Below, piece by piece: positions 8,329 through 31,347 of a stretch of DNA of 32,000 bases. The position numbers were made by a program, and so were the translations under genes. Source of the DNA: Haloferax volcanii DS2. Its GTDB lineage: Archaea; Halobacteriota; Halobacteria; Halobacteriales; Haloferacaceae. Positions within the stretch are counted from its first letter, which is position 1, and each line of letters starts with the position of its first letter. Under the pieces are notes generated by a model. The model was not told where the DNA came from, did not search any database, and saw only the letters and a program-made list of their open reading frames with translations. Where the stretch lies: assembly GCF_000025685.1 (NCBI RefSeq), contig NC_013966.1, forward strand, positions 300,001-332,000, in the 5' to 3' direction.

Positions 8329-9084
8329 ATGAGCCGAGTAGCGAACAAGACGGCGTTGATCACCGGCGCGTCCAGCGGCATCGGCCGCGGCGTCGCCGTC
8401 GCACTCGCGGAGGCGGGCGCGACGGTCGGGGTGAATCACTATCCGAGCGACGAGGAGCGAACGCGGGCGGCCGAGGTGGTCGCCGAAATCGAGGCGGCCG
8501 GCGGCGAGGCGGCAGCCTTTCCCGGCGACGTGAGCGACGCGGCGAGCGTCGACGAACTCGTCGACGGGTTCGAGGCGACGTACGGGACGCCGGACGTGCT
8601 CGTCAACAACGCCGGCATCCTCAGGCGGTCCCGTCTCGACGAGATGAGCGTTGCGGAGTGGGACGAGGTGTTGGACGTCGACCTCCGCGGGGTGTTCCTT
8701 GTGACCCGCCGCGTCGTCCCGGGGATGATCGACCGCGGGTCGGGGAGCGTCGTCAACGTGGCGTCGCAGTTGGGCTTCAAGGGTGCGGCGGGGTTCACCC
8801 ACTACTGCGCCGCCAAGGGCGGCGTCATCGCGTTCACTCGCGCGCTGGCGCGCGAAGTCGCCCCCGACGTGCGCGTGAACGCCATCGCGCCCGGGCCGGT
8901 CGAGACGCCCCTTCTCAGCGACATCTCCGAGCAGTGGCGGCGCGAGAAGGCGGCCGAACTCCCGATGGAGCGGGCCGGCCGCGTCGAGGACGTGGCACCG
9001 ACGGCGGTGTTTCTCGCCAGCGACGAGAGCAGCTACTACACGGGGCAGACGCTCTCGCCGGACGGCGGCGACGCCATGCACTGA
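8329..9084 (+). CDS. SDR-family oxidoreductase (classical short-chain dehydrogenase)
   Basis: Cofactor motif 'TGASSGIGRG', 'NNAG', and catalytic 'YCAAK'. 251 aa. Confidence 0.9.
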   Translation: MSRVANKTALITGASSGIGRGVAVALAEAGATVGVNHYPSDEERTRAAEVVAEIEAAGGEAAAFPGDVSDAASVDELVDGFEATYGTPDVLVNNAGILRRSRLDEMSVAEWDEVLDVDLRGVFLVTRRVVPGMIDRGSGSVVNVASQLGFKGAAGFTHYCAAKGGVIAFTRALAREVAPDVRVNAIAPGPVETPLLSDISEQWRREKAAELPMERAGRVEDVAPTAVFLASDESSYYTGQTLSPDGGDAMH

Positions 9085-9112
9085 GCCGTCCGTGTCACAG
9101 CATACCGTGGAC

Positions 9113-9118
9113 TTATAT
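9113..9118 (+). promoter_or_regulatory. TATA-box-like element upstream of the permease gene
   Basis: 'ttatat' centred about 29 nt upstream of the ATG at 9145. Confidence 0.4.
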
Positions 9119-9144
9119 TGGTGGCTCCGAATGGCTCTCTGTAG

Positions 9145-9996
9145 ATGTCGACACAAACCGAACGTTCCGAGGAGACTGTAGCGTCGGGTCAGTCCCCGAT
9201 CACGGGGGTCATCGAGGCCGTCAGCGTCAAGCGAGTACTTCTGGCGTACTTCCTGCTTGCCGCGGCGTACATCTATTTGCCCATCTTTTCGGTCATTGCG
9301 TTTTCGTTCAATTCGGGTGGGCTGACGTTTCCATTCGTCGAGTTCACCTTCGAGTGGTACGGAGAGTTGCTTGCCAACGAGGGACTCATCGAGGCCGTCC
9401 GGCGGTCGGTCACGCTGGCGCTCGTCGTGACCGTCATCACGACGGTGCTTGCGACGGCGACGGCGCTGGCGTACCGCTACGACTTCTGGGGACAGCGCGG
9501 CCTGCTGTTTCTCCTCATCCTGGGCATCATCACGCCCGGCATCACGTACGGCGTCGGCGCGACGCTGCTTCTCAACGAGGTGCTCGGGCTGACGAAGAAC
9601 CTGTGGCTCGCGGTTCCTGTCCACGTCGTCTGGGCGCTTCCCTTCGCGGTCATCGTCCTCCTCGCGGGGTTCCCGCCGGCGCTCAAGGAAAACGAGGAGG
9701 CCGCACGCGTGCTGGGCGCGGGGCCACTCTCGCGGTTCCGAAACGTGATACTCCCGCAGATAGCGCCGACACTCCTCGGTGCGGCCGTATTCGCATTCAC
9801 GCTGTCGTACAACGAGGCGACGCGGAGTCTCCTGCTCGTGGGGAATCAGAACACGATGCCGCTCGAGGTATTCGCCATCGCCGCCGGCACGCGCGTCCAG
9901 CCCTACCTGTTCGCGCTCGGGAGCCTCACCACCGTCTTCTCGACGCTCCTCTTAGCCGCCGCGGGACTGCTCATCGTGTACAACCGCCGGTCCTGA
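9145..9996 (+). CDS. ABC transporter permease (PotC-like)
   Basis: 283 aa with about 6 hydrophobic helices. The N-terminal 'YIYLPIFSVIAFSFN' and the EAA-like loop 'ENEEAARVLGAGPLSRFRNVILPQIAPTLLG' are typical of binding-protein-dependent transport inner-membrane components. Confidence 0.88.
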   Translation: MSTQTERSEETVASGQSPITGVIEAVSVKRVLLAYFLLAAAYIYLPIFSVIAFSFNSGGLTFPFVEFTFEWYGELLANEGLIEAVRRSVTLALVVTVITTVLATATALAYRYDFWGQRGLLFLLILGIITPGITYGVGATLLLNEVLGLTKNLWLAVPVHVVWALPFAVIVLLAGFPPALKENEEAARVLGAGPLSRFRNVILPQIAPTLLGAAVFAFTLSYNEATRSLLLVGNQNTMPLEVFAIAAGTRVQPYLFALGSLTTVFSTLLLAAAGLLIVYNRRS

Positions 9997-10065
9997 GGGT
10001 CGGTGACTCGGACCGGGTCGGCGGTCTGCGATATTCTTGGACCGTTCAGAGACGTCGCGTGACGG

Positions 10066-23134: not shown

Positions 23135-23490
23135 GTGTTTCCATGGCCGGTATCCGCGTTACCCCTGTACGTCCCCTCGACGAAAGGAGACGGAACAGCA
23201 GTGTTTGCAACGAACCTCAGGATTGGGCCAGCCGAGGCCGAGGCGTACTGTCAGCGATACAGCCGCCGATGGCAAATCGAAAACGCGTACAAGTCGATCA
23301 AGTACGACTTCTTAGCGAAAACCTCCTCGAAAGACTACCGCGTCAGGCTCTTCTACTTCGTGTTCGCAGCGTTACTGCACAATATCTGGCGGCTTACCGA
23401 CTTTCTCCTGAAAGCAGGAGTAGCGGCGATATGGACTATGCGCCTGTCCTGACAGCTGGTGAATGGTGGAATGGGTTTCTTCTGCACTGA
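23135..23490 (+). pseudogene. 5'-truncated, frameshifted IS4-family (haloarchaeal ISH-type) transposase remnant
   Basis: It contains the IS4 C-terminal Y-(2)-R-(3)-E-(6)-K signature 'YSRRWQIENAYKSIK'. The reading frame switches near 23425 from ORF 23135..23452 to ORF 23143..23490 ('DMDYAPVLTAGEW...'). Only about 115 aa of C-terminal sequence is present, with no N-terminal DDE region. Confidence 0.8.
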
Positions 23491-23713
23491 TCCCAGCAGA
23501 CTAAGCAGCTCCCAATTCGGTTCGCCCTTCGTGAGTGGAAACACTATCTCGAGGCAGGAGTTTCGGACGGAAATCCGACATTTGCAGAGTTCGATTCGAT
23601 AATCGACCGAAGAGGTCGATCAGGATAGATAATTCTGACTAATACATCATTGAATAAAACTGAACGCTGGCCATCCTCCGAAACAGTGGCCATCCCGACC
23701 AATAAATTTGGTA

Positions 23714-24115: not shown

Positions 24116-24907
24116 TTAGCGACGTAGTTCCACCAGTGGCTCGTCACACTGCGGGCAAGTGAGTCGCTCGACGGTCACGGACGCACAACACGTCTCGTGA
24201 GTCACCTGCTCGTATTCGGTCGATTCGTCACACCGGAGACAGCGGTCAACCGTTGCGCGGACGCTTCGGAGGAGGGCGGCGATTTCGTCCGGCGGACGTT
24301 CGTTCCACCCAGTATATCGCTCCGAGAAGACCGCTTTCGCCCGAAGGTCCGCGTCAAGCGCAAGCGAGGACGGCCACGCTGCGATAGGGTCGCCGTCGTC
24401 CGAAAGCGTGTAGCGACCCTGCTGGCTGGTGAACGAGCCGTCGGTCGGAGGGAGTTCGAGGATGTCGCGTGCGAGCGAAGCCGATGGCGACTGCGGCGGG
24501 TCAACCGCGGCCAGCGACGCTTTGAACTCCGGGTCGAGAGCGAAGTCTCCATCCGAGGACTCGCGTAAAAGCCCCTGCGAGAGAAGCCATGCGTCGGTGC
24601 TCTCCTCGCGTGACACCGTCAGCGGCTGCTTGCCGAACCACGCGAGGAGCCGTGACGGCAGGTAGCGCTTCGTCAGTTCCGGCGTGCCCGGAACGAGGTA
24701 GCCTCGAAAGTACACCGTCGCGAGCGCCCCGGTCAACGCCACAACGGCCGCGACACCGGACAGCGGAATCAAGACGACCGCGACGAGTGCCGAGAGAGCA
24801 ACGTTCACCGCCGTACAGGCCCAACACCGATTCGAGCCAGTGTACTCGTCTCGACGCAGTCGGCCACCGAGGTCGTTCGTAACGCGGGATAGAGGCACGT
24901 ATGTCAC
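24116..24907 (-). CDS. membrane-anchored zinc-ribbon protein of unknown function, co-transcribed with the halocin precursor
   Basis: GTG start 10 nt downstream of the halocin stop. An N-terminal 'CWAC' is followed by two hydrophobic helices ('AVNVALSALVAVVLIPLSGVAAVVALTGALATVYF'). The C-terminus is 'CLRCDE...(15)...CC...(10)...CPQCDE', i.e. CxxC...CxxC. Confidence 0.72.
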   Translation of the reverse strand: MTYVPLSRVTNDLGGRLRRDEYTGSNRCWACTAVNVALSALVAVVLIPLSGVAAVVALTGALATVYFRGYLVPGTPELTKRYLPSRLLAWFGKQPLTVSREESTDAWLLSQGLLRESSDGDFALDPEFKASLAAVDPPQSPSASLARDILELPPTDGSFTSQQGRYTLSDDGDPIAAWPSSLALDADLRAKAVFSERYTGWNERPPDEIAALLRSVRATVDRCLRCDESTEYEQVTHETCCASVTVERLTCPQCDEPLVELRR

Positions 24908-24917
24908 TGCCCCCTAC

Positions 24918-25835
24918 TTAGCACCAGTTCGTCCGGTCAGCACAGACCTCTTCAGCGACGGCTTCGCCGCATCCGGAGAGGGCGTCGGCCACGTCGCAGA
25001 TGATACCGACGAAGCCGACACAGGTCAGGCCGGCGATGGGGACCGCAATCCCGGTGAGCCCGCAGATGAACGCGCCGGTCGCCGCGCAGCCGACGCTACA
25101 AGTGAGGCCGACGGCGAACCCACAGGCGTAACAGCCGTCGACATCGACGTCGTCGTCGAGGAGGTCCCACGCGAGGTTCGACAGGTCACTCCCCGTGGTG
25201 AACCCGTCGTAAATCTCGTCGATGACGGCGTTCGTGTCGACGTTGTTGACGGCCCGCCGAGTCGCATCGGCATCGAGGTCGAGTTCGGTAGACGCCAAGC
25301 CATCGGAGCTGTTTGCGGCGGACACCGTCTGTTCACCGGCCTCGGCGTCGAATCGCTCGATACGGGTGGTGAATCCGTCTTTCGTCTTGTGCGTGTAATC
25401 GAGAACGCTCAGAATGAGCGAATCCGACGTGGCGTCTTCGGCGAGCACGACGGCGGCTTCGGCGTCGTCGTTCGGGTGCTTGACCGGGTACTCGACGACG
25501 TACCGGTGAATCTTCTCGCCGTCCGGCGCGTCGTCGGCGGCGACCTCGACTTCGCCGACGGTGACCGACTCGCCGCGAGACACTGTCCCGTCACGGGAGT
25601 TCGCCTTCGCTTCGAGACGGTCGAACTCGTCGCTCTTCGCCAACCGAGTCGCCACTTTCGCCTCAGCTTCGCCGTCGAGAATGCTGATGTTCTCGGCAGC
25701 GACGGCGTTCCCGGCGGCGGCAGGGGACAACGCGAGCCCCGTCCCGACCGCGCCGGCGCGACGAACGAAACTGCGTCGGTTGAGTCCGCTCTCCTGTTCG
25801 TTACTGTCGTGTTCGTTGTCGTTAGCTCGGGTCAT
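24918..25835 (-). CDS. halC8: halocin C8-like archaeocin precursor (Tat signal + pro/immunity-like region + Cys-rich C-terminal peptide)
   Basis: Twin-arginine signal 'NRRSFVRRAGAVGTGLALSPAAAGNAVAAE', an acidic middle region of about 180 aa, and the C-terminal 'DVDVDGCYACGFAVGLTCSVGCAATGAFICGLTGIAVPIAGLTCVGFVGIICDVADALSGCGEAVAEEVCADRTNWC' with 10 Cys. I chose the start at ATG 25835; the upstream ATG at 25880 is also in frame. Confidence 0.85.
   Translation of the reverse strand: MTRANDNEHDSNEQESGLNRRSFVRRAGAVGTGLALSPAAAGNAVAAENISILDGEAEAKVATRLAKSDEFDRLEAKANSRDGTVSRGESVTVGEVEVAADDAPDGEKIHRYVVEYPVKHPNDDAEAAVVLAEDATSDSLILSVLDYTHKTKDGFTTRIERFDAEAGEQTVSAANSSDGLASTELDLDADATRRAVNNVDTNAVIDEIYDGFTTGSDLSNLAWDLLDDDVDVDGCYACGFAVGLTCSVGCAATGAFICGLTGIAVPIAGLTCVGFVGIICDVADALSGCGEAVAEEVCADRTNWC
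24921..25151 (-). other. predicted mature halocin peptide region (77 aa, 10 Cys, hydrophobic)
   Basis: This is the C-terminal segment of the precursor starting at 'DVDVDGC'. The boundary is inferred by analogy to the ~76-aa, 10-Cys halocin C8, and the exact cleavage site is not determinable from sequence. Confidence 0.55.
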
Positions 25836-25991
25836 CGTGTTACCCAATCGACACCATGGCGGGGACACACATTGCGTCATGGACCGTTAGAGAACCGCAC
25901 CGACTGCGGTCGCCGCGCACGAGGTGACGTAACGACACAGCAACTGCACGAATCCGTCACGCTCTGCGGAGACGGTGCAGTTCGGAAGTGG

Positions 25992-26015
25992 TGACTGTAA
26001 TCCGGATTTCAGTCA
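25992..26015. promoter_or_regulatory. 24-bp near-perfect palindrome (candidate operator) 7 nt upstream of the regulator start codon
   Basis: 'tgactgtaatccggatttcagtca' has 11 of 12 positions self-complementary, with the only mismatch at t25998/t26009. It overlaps the position where a TATA/BRE for a leaderless 26022 start would sit. Confidence 0.5.
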
Positions 26016-26021
26016 ACAGAA

Positions 26022-26849
26022 ATGTCAAGTAATGAAGGTCAAAAGTCGTCGGTGATGCCGTCTCCAACCACCGAAGAGATAATCGACCTCGTCACCCGCC
26101 GGTGGGACGTCTTAGAGTCGCTTTCGGATCGCGCATTATCCAAGCCGGAATTAGAGGCGACGCTCGGGGTCTCTCGTTCGACGGTGGACCGGGCAATCGG
26201 TGAACTCGAAGCGGCGTCGATGGTCGTCCGCGACCCGTCGAGCGGCTACCGGCTGACGGAGCTCGGTCGGCCGGTGTATCGGCTGTGCAAACGGACTCGA
26301 CGGTGTCTCGATGCCGTGACCGAAGCGCACTCCCACGGGTCGGCGGTTCCATCGGGCGCGAACGGCGAGCTACCGATGTACGACGGGGCGAGGCTCGTGT
26401 CCTCGGAGCCGCACGTTCCGGACAAGCCACTGCAACATCTCCTCGACACGATGCGCGAGGCGGAGTCGCTACGCGGCTACACCCCGGTCGTGTTACAACA
26501 GTACGTCGAGGTGTGCCACAAGCACGCCACGCGCCGAGAGGCCGATGTCGAACTCGTCGTGCCCCCGCAAGTCCATCAGTGCCTGCGGACGACGTATCCC
26601 GACGAGTACCGACGCGCGCGTCGGGCCTCGTGCGTCCGCCTCCACGAAACGTCGGCCTCGCTGCCGTTCGGACTGCTCCTGTTCGGTGAGGGGGCGGACC
26701 GGACGTGCGCGCTCGTGTCGTACTCGAAGGCCGGTGCGACGGGCGTGCTGTTCAACGATACGGCCTCGGCGATTGGTTGGGCGACGCAGACGTACCGCGA
26801 GCTCAAGGCCGATTCGACCCCGGTCGACCAGCCGAAAGCGACGCAGTAA
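26022..26849 (+). CDS. winged-helix transcriptional regulator with large C-terminal domain (haloarchaeal ArsR/MarR-like wHTH + effector domain)
   Basis: The N-terminal 'LSKPELEATLGVSRSTVDRAIGELEAASMVVRDPSSGYRLTELG' is a wHTH, followed by a C-terminal domain of about 170 aa. It is divergently transcribed from the halocin gene with a 186-bp gap. Confidence 0.8.
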   Translation: MSSNEGQKSSVMPSPTTEEIIDLVTRRWDVLESLSDRALSKPELEATLGVSRSTVDRAIGELEAASMVVRDPSSGYRLTELGRPVYRLCKRTRRCLDAVTEAHSHGSAVPSGANGELPMYDGARLVSSEPHVPDKPLQHLLDTMREAESLRGYTPVVLQQYVEVCHKHATRREADVELVVPPQVHQCLRTTYPDEYRRARRASCVRLHETSASLPFGLLLFGEGADRTCALVSYSKAGATGVLFNDTASAIGWATQTYRELKADSTPVDQPKATQ

Positions 26850-26857
26850 CCGTGCGC

Positions 26858-27058
26858 TCATCCGTCGAACTCCGGTGTAAACAGCTCTTCGACGGAACAA
26901 TCGAAATAGCGCGCGAGCTTGAACGCGAGTTCGAGCGACGGGTCGTACCGCGAGTGTTCGATGGCGTAGATGGTCTGTCGACTGACGCCGACCGCAGTCG
27001 CCAGTTCCTCTTGAGTGATGTGTTCTTCGGCCCGCTTCACTCGGATGTCGTTCTCCAT
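26858..27058 (-). CDS. XRE-family (HTH_3) small transcriptional regulator
   Basis: 66 aa. 'ITQEELATAVGVSRQTIYAIEHSRYDPSLELAFKLARYF' is a canonical Cro/C1-type HTH. Confidence 0.88.
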   Translation of the reverse strand: MENDIRVKRAEEHITQEELATAVGVSRQTIYAIEHSRYDPSLELAFKLARYFDCSVEELFTPEFDG

Positions 27059-27063
27059 CGGTG

Positions 27064-27459
27064 TCAGACGCGCTGTCGGAACTCGGTCGCGCCGAGGACG
27101 CAGAACATCGTCCCGAGACCTGCGACCGCGAGGAAGGTGACTGCGCTCGGGACCGGCCGGGTACTGAGGGCGTACGACGCGAACACGCCGACTAACGACG
27201 CGAGCATGACTCCGCCGGTCGTACTGAGCGCGCGGTCGATGTTGCGCACGTCGCGTTCGTCGACCACGCTGTCGGAGGACGACCCGCTTCGAACCGCGTA
27301 TCCGACGTTCGCGAAGACGGCGATGACCGCAGGAACGACCACTAACTCACCGACTGAGGGAGGGGGTTCCGCACCGAGAAAGGGAGAGACAACCGCCGAC
27401 AGGAGCGCCGGAACGACGAACAGCAGGAAACTGTACGTCGGTGGGAGCCACCGCGACAT
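27064..27459 (-). CDS. small integral membrane protein (4 predicted helices), operon partner of the XRE regulator
   Basis: ATG at 27459 lies 1 nt after the upstream TGA (27461-27463). Hydrophobic segments alternate with a short acidic loop. Its stop is 5 nt before the XRE start. Confidence 0.7.
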   Translation of the reverse strand: MSRWLPPTYSFLLFVVPALLSAVVSPFLGAEPPPSVGELVVVPAVIAVFANVGYAVRSGSSSDSVVDERDVRNIDRALSTTGGVMLASLVGVFASYALSTRPVPSAVTFLAVAGLGTMFCVLGATEFRQRV

Positions 27460-27460
27460 C

Positions 27461-27691
27461 TCACTGTCCCCCACTTCCGAACTCGCTCGACAGGATTCCG
27501 GGGAGGTCGGTCAGCCAACTAACGACCGCACAGACGATCATCACGCCGACAGCGGCCATATAGCCCCACACCGTAACCGTGTCGAGTACAAAGTCGATTG
27601 CGACGAATCCCGAGAGGATGACAGCGCCGCTGACCGCCGCCGCGACGACGACGAGCAGCGCACCGTAAGCGCGCATCGGACTGTTTACCAT
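27461..27691 (-). CDS. small integral membrane protein (2 predicted helices)
   Basis: 'MVNSPMRAYGALLVVVAAAVSGAVILSGFVAIDF...YMAAVGVMIVCAVVSWL'. The start at ATG 27691 is supported by a TATA-like element about 28 nt upstream. The ORF track extends to 27748. Confidence 0.6.
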   Translation of the reverse strand: MVNSPMRAYGALLVVVAAAVSGAVILSGFVAIDFVLDTVTVWGYMAAVGVMIVCAVVSWLTDLPGILSSEFGSGGQ

Positions 27692-28145: not shown

Positions 28146-29093
28146 TCATTCGACAGCGTTCCTCGTCGCTCCCTCGTCGGAAGGCTGTGAATCCGCTGTC
28201 CCACCAGTCCAGTAGTCGGCTAGCGGACCGTCAACACCGGTGAGTTGAATCCACGCCTGCGAAGTAATTCCGAGAACGACGATCGAGATGATCGACGACT
28301 CCACCGAGAGTGCCGTCTGAGTGAGTAAGAAGGTCGGTGAACCGAACGTCGCATCCGGCATGACCTGTCCGAGAAGCAGACTGAACGCCATATTGATTCC
28401 GTAGGGAACGATGAGGGCTGCACCCAGTCGGAGGCGGTTCCCAGCGACGGTGCGCCAACTTTGGACGAACGCTGTCGTGACCGTCGCATCGCGAACGGCG
28501 ATTTCTTGCTCGACAAACGCAAACGTCAACAGGACGAACCCGACTGGCAGCAGACCCACCAGTATCGCTGGAACAACGAGGAGAGGTGTGTACCACGCAC
28601 CGACGAGCGTCGTCCGCAGTGATTCGGGAAGCACGGCGAAGACCCCGACCGTCCCGAGAGTGACGACGATCACGACGAGGAAGATCAGAACGAACATGGC
28701 CAGTACCCTGAGTAACGTGGCGATGAACAGTCGCAGCGTCGCCCAGCCAAGAGTTCGGAACACCAACTGTTCCGGGAGGTGATCGCGCCCGTCGTCGATG
28801 AGCGAACGAACCGCAACGATCTGTATCGGTACCGTCAGTACGCCGCCAGTGAGCCCGCCGAGGAGTGCGGCGCTCGCTGAGACCAGCGACGGGAGGGCCG
28901 TCCCGGGTGCCGGCGTCCCTGGTGGTGACGCCGCTCCGGCCATCCCGAGCGGGACGTACGTGGTCGCCAACACCCAGACAAACGCGCTTTGGAGAACAAC
29001 TGCAACGAAAAAGGTCGCCATGAGGAGGACGCCATTTCGCGTGAGAACGCGTCCGAGTCCGTCGGACACAGTCTGTCGAACGTGGAGGACCAT
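28146..29093 (-). CDS. polytopic membrane protein of unknown function (paralog A)
   Basis: About 315 aa with 6-7 hydrophobic helices. It shares an ungapped conserved block with the 30580..31347 product ('QEIAVRDATVTTAFVQSWRTVAGNRL' versus 'QAIVIDGASAIDSFKRSYRVVRGNLL'). ATG 29093 aligns with the paralog N-terminus; GTG 29129 is also possible. Confidence 0.75.
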   Translation of the reverse strand: MVLHVRQTVSDGLGRVLTRNGVLLMATFFVAVVLQSAFVWVLATTYVPLGMAGAASPPGTPAPGTALPSLVSASAALLGGLTGGVLTVPIQIVAVRSLIDDGRDHLPEQLVFRTLGWATLRLFIATLLRVLAMFVLIFLVVIVVTLGTVGVFAVLPESLRTTLVGAWYTPLLVVPAILVGLLPVGFVLLTFAFVEQEIAVRDATVTTAFVQSWRTVAGNRLRLGAALIVPYGINMAFSLLLGQVMPDATFGSPTFLLTQTALSVESSIISIVVLGITSQAWIQLTGVDGPLADYWTGGTADSQPSDEGATRNAVE

Positions 29094-29294
29094 ACACCCC
29101 GCTTCTCCGTGCCGTGAGTTCAAACCCACGGGTGCTTTTCTGGTTCGGAAAATATCGCGTTCGGGGGAAGGAGGCCCATTCCGGGGGCCTGACGAACGAC
29201 AGGAGGACCGAGACGGAGACCGGCACGTGGGACGATGGCAGCGAGACGCTAAAGTGGGGCCGTCGACTTTCTGGCCTGGAAAAAGAGTAGAGGG

Positions 29295-29302
29295 TATTAA
29301 TT
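29295..29302 (+). promoter_or_regulatory. TATA-box-like element upstream of the wHTH gene
   Basis: 'tattaatt' centred about 27 nt upstream of the GTG at 29325. This favours 29325 over the TTG at 29301, which overlaps the element itself. Confidence 0.4.
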
Positions 29303-29324
29303 GCTCCGCCCTGAAGTGTTCGAC

Positions 29325-29672
29325 GTGAGTGAGGAGCCCTCCGCCGAGGAAATCTTCGCGCTCCTCGATGACGAGTACGCGCGTGCGATCCTCGCTCAGA
29401 CGAGCATCGAACCGATGTCCGCCAAAACCTTGAGCGATCGATGTGATGCCTCCCTACCCACGATATACCGGCGCACGGAGCGACTCGTCGACTGTGACTT
29501 ACTCGCAGAACAGACCGAAATCGGTGAAAGCGGCCACCATTACAGCGTCTTCGAGGCGCGACTCGACAGTCTTACCGTCGAAGTGGACGAGGGAGACATC
29601 TCAGTGAGTCTCGACACGGGCCGGGCCGAAGACCCGGCCGACCGCTTCACCGACCTCTGGGAGGGAATCTGA
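29325..29672 (+). CDS. small winged-helix (ArsR-like) transcriptional regulator
   Basis: 'EEIFALLDDEYARAILAQTSIEPMSAKTLSDRCDASLPTIYRRTERLVDCDLLAEQ' is a typical haloarchaeal wHTH. Its stop is 1 nt before the next gene. Confidence 0.8.
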   Translation: MSEEPSAEEIFALLDDEYARAILAQTSIEPMSAKTLSDRCDASLPTIYRRTERLVDCDLLAEQTEIGESGHHYSVFEARLDSLTVEVDEGDISVSLDTGRAEDPADRFTDLWEGI

Positions 29673-29673
29673 G

Positions 29674-29997
29674 ATGGTTCAACCCAGCATGGACCTGTAC
29701 GTGAACTACCTCGTGTTGCTGGCGGTGACGCTACTGGCGTTGGTTCTCAGCCTTGCCATCGTTTTTCAAGCCTACCGCGGATACCGACGCAATCGAAGCC
29801 AGCCGATGCTGTGGCTCGCGGTTGGACTGGTCCTCCTCACGGCCGTGCCGTTCGTGATATCGTTGACGGTCGCATCGGCCGGAACCGCGCTCGGGTTCGA
29901 CCCGGTTGTGTACACGTACTACGTCCCCATACTGAACAGACTCATCGAAGTCGTCGGACTGGTCTGTATCCTCTATTCGCTTTATAGCCGACCCTGA
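29674..29997 (+). CDS. small 3-helix membrane protein, operon partner of the wHTH regulator
   Basis: 107 aa with three hydrophobic segments and a basic loop 'AYRGYRRNRSQP' after helix 1. The ATG is 1 nt after the upstream stop. Confidence 0.75.
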   Translation: MVQPSMDLYVNYLVLLAVTLLALVLSLAIVFQAYRGYRRNRSQPMLWLAVGLVLLTAVPFVISLTVASAGTALGFDPVVYTYYVPILNRLIEVVGLVCILYSLYSRP

Positions 29998-30579: not shown

Positions 30580-31347
30580 TCACCCGGTCAGTTCGTCGTA
30601 GACGGCGACGGAGAACGTGAGCAGGAACGCCGACACGACACTACCGATGACCGCCGCGAGGAGACCCACGACGACGAGGAGAGGCGTCGAGAGCGTCGGC
30701 AGACCGGCCGCCGAGGCGGCGTCGGCGCTAGCCAAGAGCGAGACGCCGGCGTAGACACCACCGGAAAGCGCGCCGATGACCAGTGCGAGAAGCATGTACC
30801 CGACCGTCGCCAGAAGGTTCCCTCGGACCACGCGATAACTCCGCTTGAACGAGTCGATTGCGGACGCACCGTCGATGACGATAGCCTGGCCGTAGAACTG
30901 GACGAAGAACGCCACGACGAGATACAGGAGTCCCGCAATGGCCGCCAGACCGATAAACGCCGTCCCGATAGAGCCGTGCGTCAGGAACGCCCCGAAGCCG
31001 GCCGCGACACCGACCGCACCGATGACGCCGTTGACGACGAGCAAGAGGACGTAGGCGATCAGCAACGAGAGATAGTTGGCCTTCCCGTCGGCGACGAAAC
31101 GGGACAGCGAGCTACGGGTGGTCAGGGCCTCGTCGGCCATCCCGAACATGCCGCCCTGGATGAAGGGCGTCACGAGGAGGAAAACCGCGGAGATACCCAG
31201 CGAGTAGAGCGTCGAGACGAGCGGATACGACGACTGCAACAGCAGCTGGGGGACTAGCAGCGCGAACACGATCAGTTGTGGGACCAACAGACCCGGAGCA
31301 CGCTTGAGCGCACCCGGTGTCCGTCGGAGGGCTTGGAGGACTCCCAT
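30580..31347 (-). CDS. polytopic membrane protein of unknown function (paralog B)
   Basis: 255 aa with about 6 hydrophobic helices and the conserved block shared with 28146..29093. A TATA-like element lies about 26 nt upstream of the ATG at 31347. Confidence 0.8.
   Translation of the reverse strand: MGVLQALRRTPGALKRAPGLLVPQLIVFALLVPQLLLQSSYPLVSTLYSLGISAVFLLVTPFIQGGMFGMADEALTTRSSLSRFVADGKANYLSLLIAYVLLLVVNGVIGAVGVAAGFGAFLTHGSIGTAFIGLAAIAGLLYLVVAFFVQFYGQAIVIDGASAIDSFKRSYRVVRGNLLATVGYMLLALVIGALSGGVYAGVSLLASADAASAAGLPTLSTPLLVVVGLLAAVIGSVVSAFLLTFSVAVYDELTG

Follow-up and report, generated by a model that had tools for sequence, protein, structure and literature searches.

The window analysed here is a stretch of 32,000 nucleotides (nt) of Haloferax volcanii DS2 (contig NC_013966.1, positions 300,001 to 332,000 of the forward strand). 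Its positions 24116–26849 hold a halocin C8-like precursor gene, a gene for a membrane protein of the DUF8054 family with a C-terminal zinc ribbon and a divergent gene for a winged helix–turn–helix (wHTH) regulator of the FilR1 type. The halocin C8 locus itself is of a known kind, and the pair of DUF8054 and FilR1-type genes is a recurrent, previously undescribed accessory of such loci. The features of this part of the window, with the evidence for each, are as follows.

24116–24907, minus strand: DUF8054-family gene, 263 amino acids, GTG start (open reading frame list; homologue domains, alignments, AlphaFold2 model, dN/dS).
24908–24917, minus strand: 10-nt spacer GTAGGGGGCA (coding strand) from the precursor stop to the DUF8054 GTG (sequence).
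24918–25835, minus strand: halocin C8-like precursor, 305 amino acids (PF22862, TIGR04449, homologue starts).
24921–25133, minus strand: predicted mature halocin C8-like peptide region, residues 250–320 of the 320-residue open reading frame (TIGR04449 match; Cys columns kept in the alignment).
25836–26021, unstranded: divergent control region between precursor and regulator, putative function (conserved blocks in the alignment, inverted repeats).
26022–26849, plus strand: wHTH regulator (HVO_A0261_N + FilR1_middle), 275 amino acids, in a HalR-like position (Pfam).

A sequence-only reading of this stretch had described a TAA stop at 24918–24920, a gap of 10 nt and a GTG start, and all three are exact to the base, with the GTG at 24905–24907 (the codons read TTA and CAC on the plus strand). 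The divergent regulator was also correctly placed 186 bp upstream. The open reading frame of the precursor extends to 25880 (320 residues); because the homologues start at MTRANDN, which corresponds to ATG 25835 and gives 305 residues, exactly 186 bp separate this start from the regulator ATG at 26022. The ratio of nonsynonymous to synonymous substitution rates (dN/dS) against relatives is 0.11–0.36 for the precursor, DUF8054 and regulator genes, which indicates purifying selection. Together with a spacing of 7–14 nt that is kept between precursor and DUF8054, this shows that they are real genes and not chance reading frames. The precursor and DUF8054 genes almost certainly share a transcript, and translational coupling of the second to the first is probable. 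The spacer has no T-run, and its G-run is a possible weak Shine–Dalgarno site.

Its domains mark the precursor as a genuine halocin C8-like protein. It matches the Pfam family Hac8_like_N (PF22862), the HalI-like N-domain, with an E value of 1.3e-44 and 151.6 bits (cut-off 27), and the halocin C8 domain (TIGR04449, halocin_C8_dom) with 46.6 bits (cut-off 24; 5.1e-12). Ten cysteines lie in the last 71 residues, and all ten Cys columns are conserved in the homologue alignments. The translation contains the twin-arginine motif NRRSFVRR, and its predicted twin-arginine translocation (Tat) signal, NRRSFVRRAGAVGTGLAL, aligns with the RR motif of the homologues. The precursor is 98.7% identical to annotated halocin C8-like proteins on plasmids of H. 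lucentense and H. alexandrinus and shares approximately 34–37% identity with P0127, a ProC8-like protein. The contigs L100 and P0128, also ProC8-like, measure just approximately 1.2 kb (in this work, numbers with the prefix L denote the loci compared, and coordinates after such a number belong to that locus). Two of the three protein searches with HalC8 were dominated by low-complexity words and returned just 6–7 matches each. A metagenome scan with the HalC8 alignment retrieved one near-identical locus only, and scans of viral contigs for the HalC8 and DUF8054 families gave no match.

We compared this arrangement with the published halocin C8 locus of Natrinema sp. AS7092, in which the gene order is halU-halR-halC8-halT1-halT2-halT3 with ABC (ATP-binding cassette) transporter genes following halC8 (10.64898/2026.07.27.741052). 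In that system ProC8 is processed to HalI and HalC8, and none of the neighbour genes of halC8 has been characterized (10.64898/2026.07.27.741052). According to Sun et al. (2005), as summarized elsewhere, HalI, the N-terminal part of ProC8, is the immunity protein. The two loci share a Tat-signal precursor, a HalI-like N-domain, a C-terminal halocin C8 domain with ten cysteines and a regulator immediately upstream. However, the window regulator, divergent and 186 bp away, matches HalR by position only. The HalT position is also different: where the ABC transporter follows halC8 in Natrinema, the window has the gene for the DUF8054 membrane zinc-ribbon protein and then a remnant of an insertion sequence (IS). 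The DUF8054 protein was rejected as an equivalent of HalT1–3, as it is not an ABC transporter. In the relatives, the closest ABC genes are those of the oppositely oriented phosphonate transporter phnCDE, approximately 1 kb off, and the window does not contain them.

The DUF8054 protein is composed of a predicted cytoplasmic N-terminus with RCWAC, a membrane hairpin, a conserved RGYLVPGTPELTKRYLP segment, a globular α/β domain and the ribbon. The N-terminal CWAC, the two transmembrane (TM) helices and the C-terminal ribbon described in the earlier reading are all present, with cysteines at C28/C31, C223/C226, C240/C241 and C251/C254. In the AlphaFold2 model (mean pLDDT 86), the helices span residues 29–46 and 51–71, and a three-stranded C-terminal sheet spans residues 231–262. 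The C223/C226 and C251/C254 knuckles flank its strands (231–238, 243–251 and 256–262), so that the C-terminal domain as modelled is a zinc ribbon, which presumably binds zinc. The hairpin carries basic residues on either side, and its external loop has approximately four residues. By the positive-inside rule, both termini are probably inside the cell, with the whole mass of the protein facing the cytoplasm. We also considered two zinc sites, one formed by the N-terminal CxxC and the CC pair and the other by the ribbon. The eight cysteines are invariant in 203 of 210 DUF8054 members, and C226 and C254 are lost together in one subclade that includes the halocin-linked L088 and L096; this pattern of loss decides neither way.

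The assignment to DUF8054 (PF26236 N, PF26238 M and PF26237 C) comes from the 99%-identical protein P0001 and from all 120 homologues listed, which carry these domains, and the family hidden Markov model (HMM) built here matches the window protein over its full length. An alignment of 86 DUF8054 sequences has 26 invariant columns, among them columns of YTGxNRCxxCT ahead of helix 1, of RGYLVPGTPxLTKRY behind helix 2 and of six cysteines near the C-terminus. Both of these motifs, as well as WxS..A...D and CxxC..CC..CxxC, are found in the window protein, where the invariant positions include G24, R27, C28, C31, T32, N35, R68–P73, W178, S180, D187, W201, R217 and the six C-terminal cysteines. Any later start would fall downstream of the conserved YTGxNRCxxCT, which supports the GTG. 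The gene is a diverged, dedicated DUF8054 paralogue: it is 31–41% identical to typical members, it has CWAC where they have a near-invariant CxPC and CLRC where they have CPxC, and its organization in an operon with a halocin precursor is rare in the family. The dN/dS value of 0.23–0.36 for this gene shows that the copy is maintained. The family occurs throughout Halobacteria and is restricted to genomes of the haloarchaeal type, with at least 569 loci confirmed in species-representative genomes and two or three copies in several genomes.

Searches of PDB and viral folds, a PDB sequence profile, NCBIfam, PADLOC and PHROGs returned nothing informative for DUF8054, and there was no match to a catalytic, defence or viral family in these libraries. 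Its zinc-finger similarity consists of weak matches to ZPR1, MqsA and Ogr-type proteins only. A cytoplasmic DsbB/VKOR-like oxidase was rejected, as the protein has two helices only instead of a four-helix bundle, its cysteines are all on the basic, presumably cytoplasmic side in CPxCG-type knuckles, and no fold matches. DUF8054 is named in no paper of the literature searched, although an earlier mention of the halocin linkage may exist.

Two further observations concern DUF8054 copies in Haloferax. The RefSeq and Logan calls start the gene 33–64 codons late (230 or 199 residues), for example in L095 10031–10723 (WP_004064528.1), the equivalent of window 24116–24808. The late start removes YTGxNRCxxC and part of helix 1, and the GTG 10 nt past the precursor stop restores the N-terminus. 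In addition, relatives have a second, canonical DUF8054 paralogue (272 residues, 34% identical) 6–9 kb downstream past phnCDE (L092 16597–17415, L093 19471–20289 and L095 15610–16428). The window lacks this stretch owing to the rearrangement at the IS remnant.

The regulator has the domains HVO_A0261_N (PF25213, 4.5e-15) and FilR1_middle (PF08350, 2.3e-28), and none of the 12 Pfam families listed for it is a receiver (REC) domain. Its relatives adjoin HalC8-like or halocin-like genes in L005, L006, L057, L088 and the Haloferax clade. FilR1 of Methanosaeta harundinacea, which shares FilR1_middle and an ArsR/wHTH DNA-binding domain with the window protein, is the response regulator of the FilI/FilR two-component system, and its receiver domain is phosphorylated by FilI (PMC3991700). 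As no receiver domain is detected by Pfam in the window regulator, it needs another input than FilR1. In the control region between the two start codons, blocks such as TTGAAAT, GTGACG..TT.GTGCAG and ATTGGGTAACAC, the last directly before the precursor ATG, are conserved down to 73% protein identity. The region also contains inverted repeats (25892–25908/25967–25983 and 25942–25949/25975–25982), and we regard these blocks and repeats as candidate operators.

To follow the two accessory genes across haloarchaea, we used a census of the best 80 species-level DUF8054 loci, searched with the HalC8 profile, and a co-presence matrix of approximately 107 loci, in which only contigs long enough to judge were counted for the presence of FilR1. 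Five separate HalC8 lineages, which show four gene orders, have DUF8054 at a distance of approximately 0.5 kb or less from a HalC8-like gene. In the Haloferax clade, precursor and DUF8054 are co-directional with a gap of 7–14 nt (L001, L081, L087 and L090), and this is kept down to 66–73% protein identity. In L088, where the precursor is 44% identical, DUF8054 is divergent and FilR1 is convergent. DUF8054 is also divergent in L005, and the FilR1-type gene comes after it. In L006, a degenerate HalC8-like gene is followed by a gene of 125 codons and then DUF8054, with the FilR1-type gene upstream. Lastly, the Halobacterium plasmids, whose precursor is 30% identical, have a divergent DUF8054 that has decayed, through a frameshift in GN101, a truncation in KBTZ01 and an interrupting IS5 element in 91-R6. 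These pseudogenes (L096 5526–6468, L106 2888–3475 and L107 5984–6521) are unannotated in the plasmid tables, and in NRC-1 the HalC8-like gene itself is truncated between IS elements.

In all five lineages of halocin-type loci with an intact adjacent DUF8054, a FilR1-type gene is present as well, and both are absent in six others; DUF8054 is found without FilR1 only as the decayed Halobacterium copy. Neither gene was found within the sequenced flanks of HalC8 in H. larsenii, N. altunense and N. sediminis or in the metagenomic loci L089, L101 and L104. The same parts also surround a different precursor: in L057 (Haloferax sp. Q22), FilR1, XRE, DUF2178 and DUF8054 genes lie around a Tat-signal protein (8861–9997, minus strand) with 18 cysteines packed in a hydrophobic C-terminus. 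The N-terminal part of this protein matches the HalC8 profile with an hhalign probability of 89.6%, and the protein may represent an undescribed halocin type.

With approximately two DUF8054 copies per 3.5 Mb, the chance that one lies within 3 kb of a given gene is approximately 0.003 per locus. The observed linkage in at least five of approximately 11 HalC8 lineages is far beyond this, by a rough estimate uncorrected for kinship. Thus, the enriched co-occurrence of the zinc-ribbon and wHTH families with HalC8-like genes, on which the sequence-only reading had staked its module, is seen in several independent lineages and gene orders. The zinc-ribbon protein is not specific to halocin loci, as a HalC8-like partner occurs in just three of the 80 best species loci (L001, L005 and L006) and the family is large and housekeeping-like. 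The pair of DUF8054 and FilR1-type genes is therefore a genuine, if optional, accessory of such loci, and its role is inferred. Monophyly of the halocin-linked DUF8054 copies found no support, as they do not group in a rough neighbour-joining (NJ) tree.

The wider family has a context of its own. DUF7344, a wHTH protein with TM segments, is found within 1 kb of DUF8054 in 18 of the 80 species loci, usually on both sides, and 30 of the 37 DUF7344 matches lie that close. Bracketed examples include L010, L015, L016, L024, L037, L042, L066, L071 and others (approximately 1 kb either side of position 10001). Beyond the DUF7344 genes there are arrays of TasA/camelysin-like secreted proteins with SipW-type signal peptides, and no description of this DUF7344–DUF8054–TasA/camelysin cluster was found in the literature. 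DUF8054 directly adjoins a FilR1-type gene in L050. In Haloferax and Halogranum, the chromosomal DUF8054 gene comes after a Tat-signal protein with 34–51 cysteines and faces an S8 protease. The clustering of neighbourhoods behind these contexts covered 65 callable species loci. In a separate signal screen, Tat-like or SipW-like signals were found in 18.9% of the genes within two positions of DUF8054 versus 9.0% of those more than five positions away. For a Tat-like signal with at least six cysteines, the values are 7.4% and 1.0% (odds ratio 7.6, Fisher p = 1e-5; 13 of 65 loci), where signals were recognized by a crude regular expression and shared ancestry of the loci was not corrected for. 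The recurring theme is a wHTH regulator, then DUF8054, then a secreted protein.

The surroundings of the trio form an island that is larger than was earlier drawn, with the following features.

23135–23700, plus strand: IS4/DDE transposase remnant at the downstream edge of the island (DDE_Tnp_1; GC 0.506; matches a Halogeometricum transposase).
26858–27058, minus strand: XRE-type helix–turn–helix (HTH) regulator, 66 amino acids, last gene of a three-gene operon (Pfam HTH_3, 9.3e-17; synteny).
27064–27474, minus strand: DUF2178-like membrane protein, 131–136 amino acids (weak, precomputed PF09946 match in relatives).
27461–27691, minus strand: small1, a two-TM protein of 76 amino acids (family HMM search).

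Between approximately 23.7 and 32 kb, the DNA sequence of the window is 98.5% identical to that of Haloferax lucentense and H. alexandrinus megaplasmids. For pSVX82-2, the H. lucentense plasmid, the megablast match starts at approximately 23706, and synteny breaks at the IS remnant, to the left of which are ordinary metabolic genes. No match at the megablast level was obtained to H. volcanii plasmids for a comparison of presence and absence. The GC content at third codon positions (GC3) is 0.69–0.80 in genes at 23–30 kb versus 0.84–0.92 in the metabolic genes to the left. Of the compact three-gene module that had been proposed, the trio stands; its compactness does not, since the adjoining operon small1–DUF2178–XRE (26858–27691), which is tight and runs convergent with the FilR1-type gene, travels along. 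The XRE gene is syntenic in L001, L081, L090 and L092–L095, an XRE gene is also found beside the halocin-like locus of L057, and the DUF2178-like counterpart in L057 matches PF09946 at 5.7e-06.

The small1 HMM gave 17 matches among the approximately 107 loci, all of them in HalC8 loci (the Haloferax clade, L089, L090, Halobacterium, H. larsenii, N. altunense and N. sediminis), and no match in the 77 DUF8054 loci without HalC8. Small1 therefore tracks HalC8 more widely than DUF8054 does. HalU of Natrinema could be DUF8054 or small1. Three locus types can be distinguished, namely HalC8 alone, HalC8 with small membrane proteins and HalC8 with FilR1 and DUF8054, and the Haloferax island combines the second with the third. 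A second two-TM family, small2 (68–77 residues), lies 20–25 nt past HalC8 in Halobacterium and H. larsenii (L096 7940–8146 and L097 7935–8141) and near HalC8 also in L088 (1622–1831), L103 (4349–4582) and L102 (9104–9328). Three of the four small2 seed members end in YYAG..(V/A)RSD, and the window contains no small2.

On the grounds of the co-presence with FilR1, of wHTH neighbours elsewhere in the family and of an architecture that suits an adaptor, we tentatively propose, at a likelihood that falls short of even, that the halocin-linked DUF8054 paralogue acts as a cytoplasm-facing adaptor, the membrane-side partner of the FilR1-type (HalR-like) regulator. The recurrent linkage in differing gene orders also counts for this partnership. 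Synthesized along with the precursor, this adaptor or tether would feed information on precursor production or export at the membrane back into halocin operon transcription, and it would be neither a maturation enzyme nor an immunity protein. Membrane-tethered anti-regulators, such as the zinc-binding anti-sigma factors, and secretion-coupled feedback of the FlgM or ExsE kind offer a functional analogy only. The analogy would lie in a cytoplasm-facing Cys/zinc membrane protein beside a transcription factor and a secreted product; however, the DUF8054 protein lacks the HxxxCxxC motif of the zinc-binding anti-sigma factors and has no family, sequence or fold match to them. To our knowledge, Archaea use no sigma factors. 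Several observations weigh against a partnership with the regulator. About half of the HalC8 lineages examined have no adjacent DUF8054 or FilR1, Halobacterium tolerates the decay of DUF8054, and FilR1-type regulators are numerous in haloarchaea. The co-presence in five of five lineages involves few lineages, which were partly found via DUF8054 itself and thus carry an ascertainment bias. The most conserved segment of the protein (residues 68–100) is modelled with low confidence, and the lack of grouping of the halocin-linked copies in the NJ tree reflects either repeated recruitment or an unreliable tree. Finally, DUF8054 is coupled to the precursor and not to the regulator, which agrees no less well with a factor that acts on the precursor.

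Such a factor would be a helper of export or maturation at the cytoplasmic face of the membrane, which holds or targets the Cys-rich Tat substrate, manages its thiols or metal before export or presents it to a processing protease; we consider this doubtful but give it appreciable weight. The helper would be a dedicated copy of a general factor, supplied in trans by the housekeeping paralogue where a locus lacks its own copy. Besides the 10-nt coupling (7–14 nt in the clade), it would account for the eight cysteines invariant in 203 of 210 members and for the chromosomal copies of Haloferax and Halogranum after a Cys-rich Tat protein and facing an S8 protease, and the cleavage mechanism of ProC8 is still unexplained (10.64898/2026.07.27.741052). 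The enrichment of Tat signals with at least six cysteines near DUF8054 points the same way, within the limits of a crude screen on loci that are not phylogenetically independent. However, L088, L005 and Halobacterium have DUF8054 divergent from the precursor, an adjacent copy is missing in six HalC8 lineages, and no chaperone, protease or oxidoreductase fold matches. The cysteines are all predicted to be cytoplasmic, and the CPxCG-type knuckles resemble structural zinc sites. That the family has no specific halocin role, being a multi-copy family of variable regions rich in secreted proteins that repeatedly came to lie beside halocin cassettes and whose pairing with the halocin gene was simply co-inherited in Haloferax, appears improbable to us. 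For this speak the 77 of 80 DUF8054 loci without HalC8, an orthologue in Halorientalis that occurs both with (L006) and without (L035, L036 and L063) the HalC8/FilR1 pair, the IS remnant at the flank of the island, its GC3 below that of core genes and the halocin-linked copies that are not monophyletic in the NJ tree. Simple hitchhiking is hard to reconcile with linkage in at least five of approximately 11 lineages at a roughly estimated chance of 0.003 per locus, with maintained spacing and purifying selection and with the recurrence of the parts list around the different Cys-rich precursor of L057. Accessory self-protection, in its stronger form a resistant duplicate of a housekeeping DUF8054 that is the target of halocin C8, seems similarly improbable. 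Toxin operons commonly have a downstream membrane immunity gene, a diverged second copy in a toxin locus is the classic signature of resistance by target duplication, and the relatives keep the canonical paralogue 6–9 kb away. Yet HalI, in the summarized account of Sun et al. (2005), is already the immunity protein, DUF8054 exposes approximately four residues outside the cell, and Halobacterium keeps HalC8-like genes with a decayed DUF8054. Small1 and small2, which track HalC8 more widely, are better immunity-like candidates.

Extended to the whole family, the adaptor proposal would make DUF8054 a hitherto unrecognized, haloarchaea-wide class of cytoplasm-facing, membrane-anchored zinc-ribbon adaptors that tie secreted-protein production or export to wHTH regulators (FilR1-type and DUF7344). 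We consider this generalization unlikely. If true, the secreted partners of the class would be halocin-type Cys-rich Tat substrates and TasA/camelysin-like proteins, and the class would be an archaeal counterpart of secretion-coupled transcription control, with the halocin-linked paralogue as its most tractable example. The linkage described here is the first functional context for DUF8054, a family in most haloarchaeal genomes. Halocin C8 is the best-studied archaeal peptide toxin, and DUF8054, FilR1 and small1 are concrete candidates for deletion in culturable Haloferax.

Other genes near HalC8 include two rhomboids. In N. sediminis, HalC8 is directly followed by a rhomboid intramembrane protease that carries an AN1-type zinc finger at its N-terminus (L103 6291–7226), and in H. 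larsenii a second rhomboid lies approximately 1.8 kb upstream (L097 4510–5145); either is a possible candidate for the protease that cleaves ProC8. The island in the window further holds two DUF7847 paralogues and a gene pair of HTH_20/HVO_A0261_N and DUF7521 (28146–29129, 29301–29997 and 30580–31347), all syntenic with the Haloferax plasmids.

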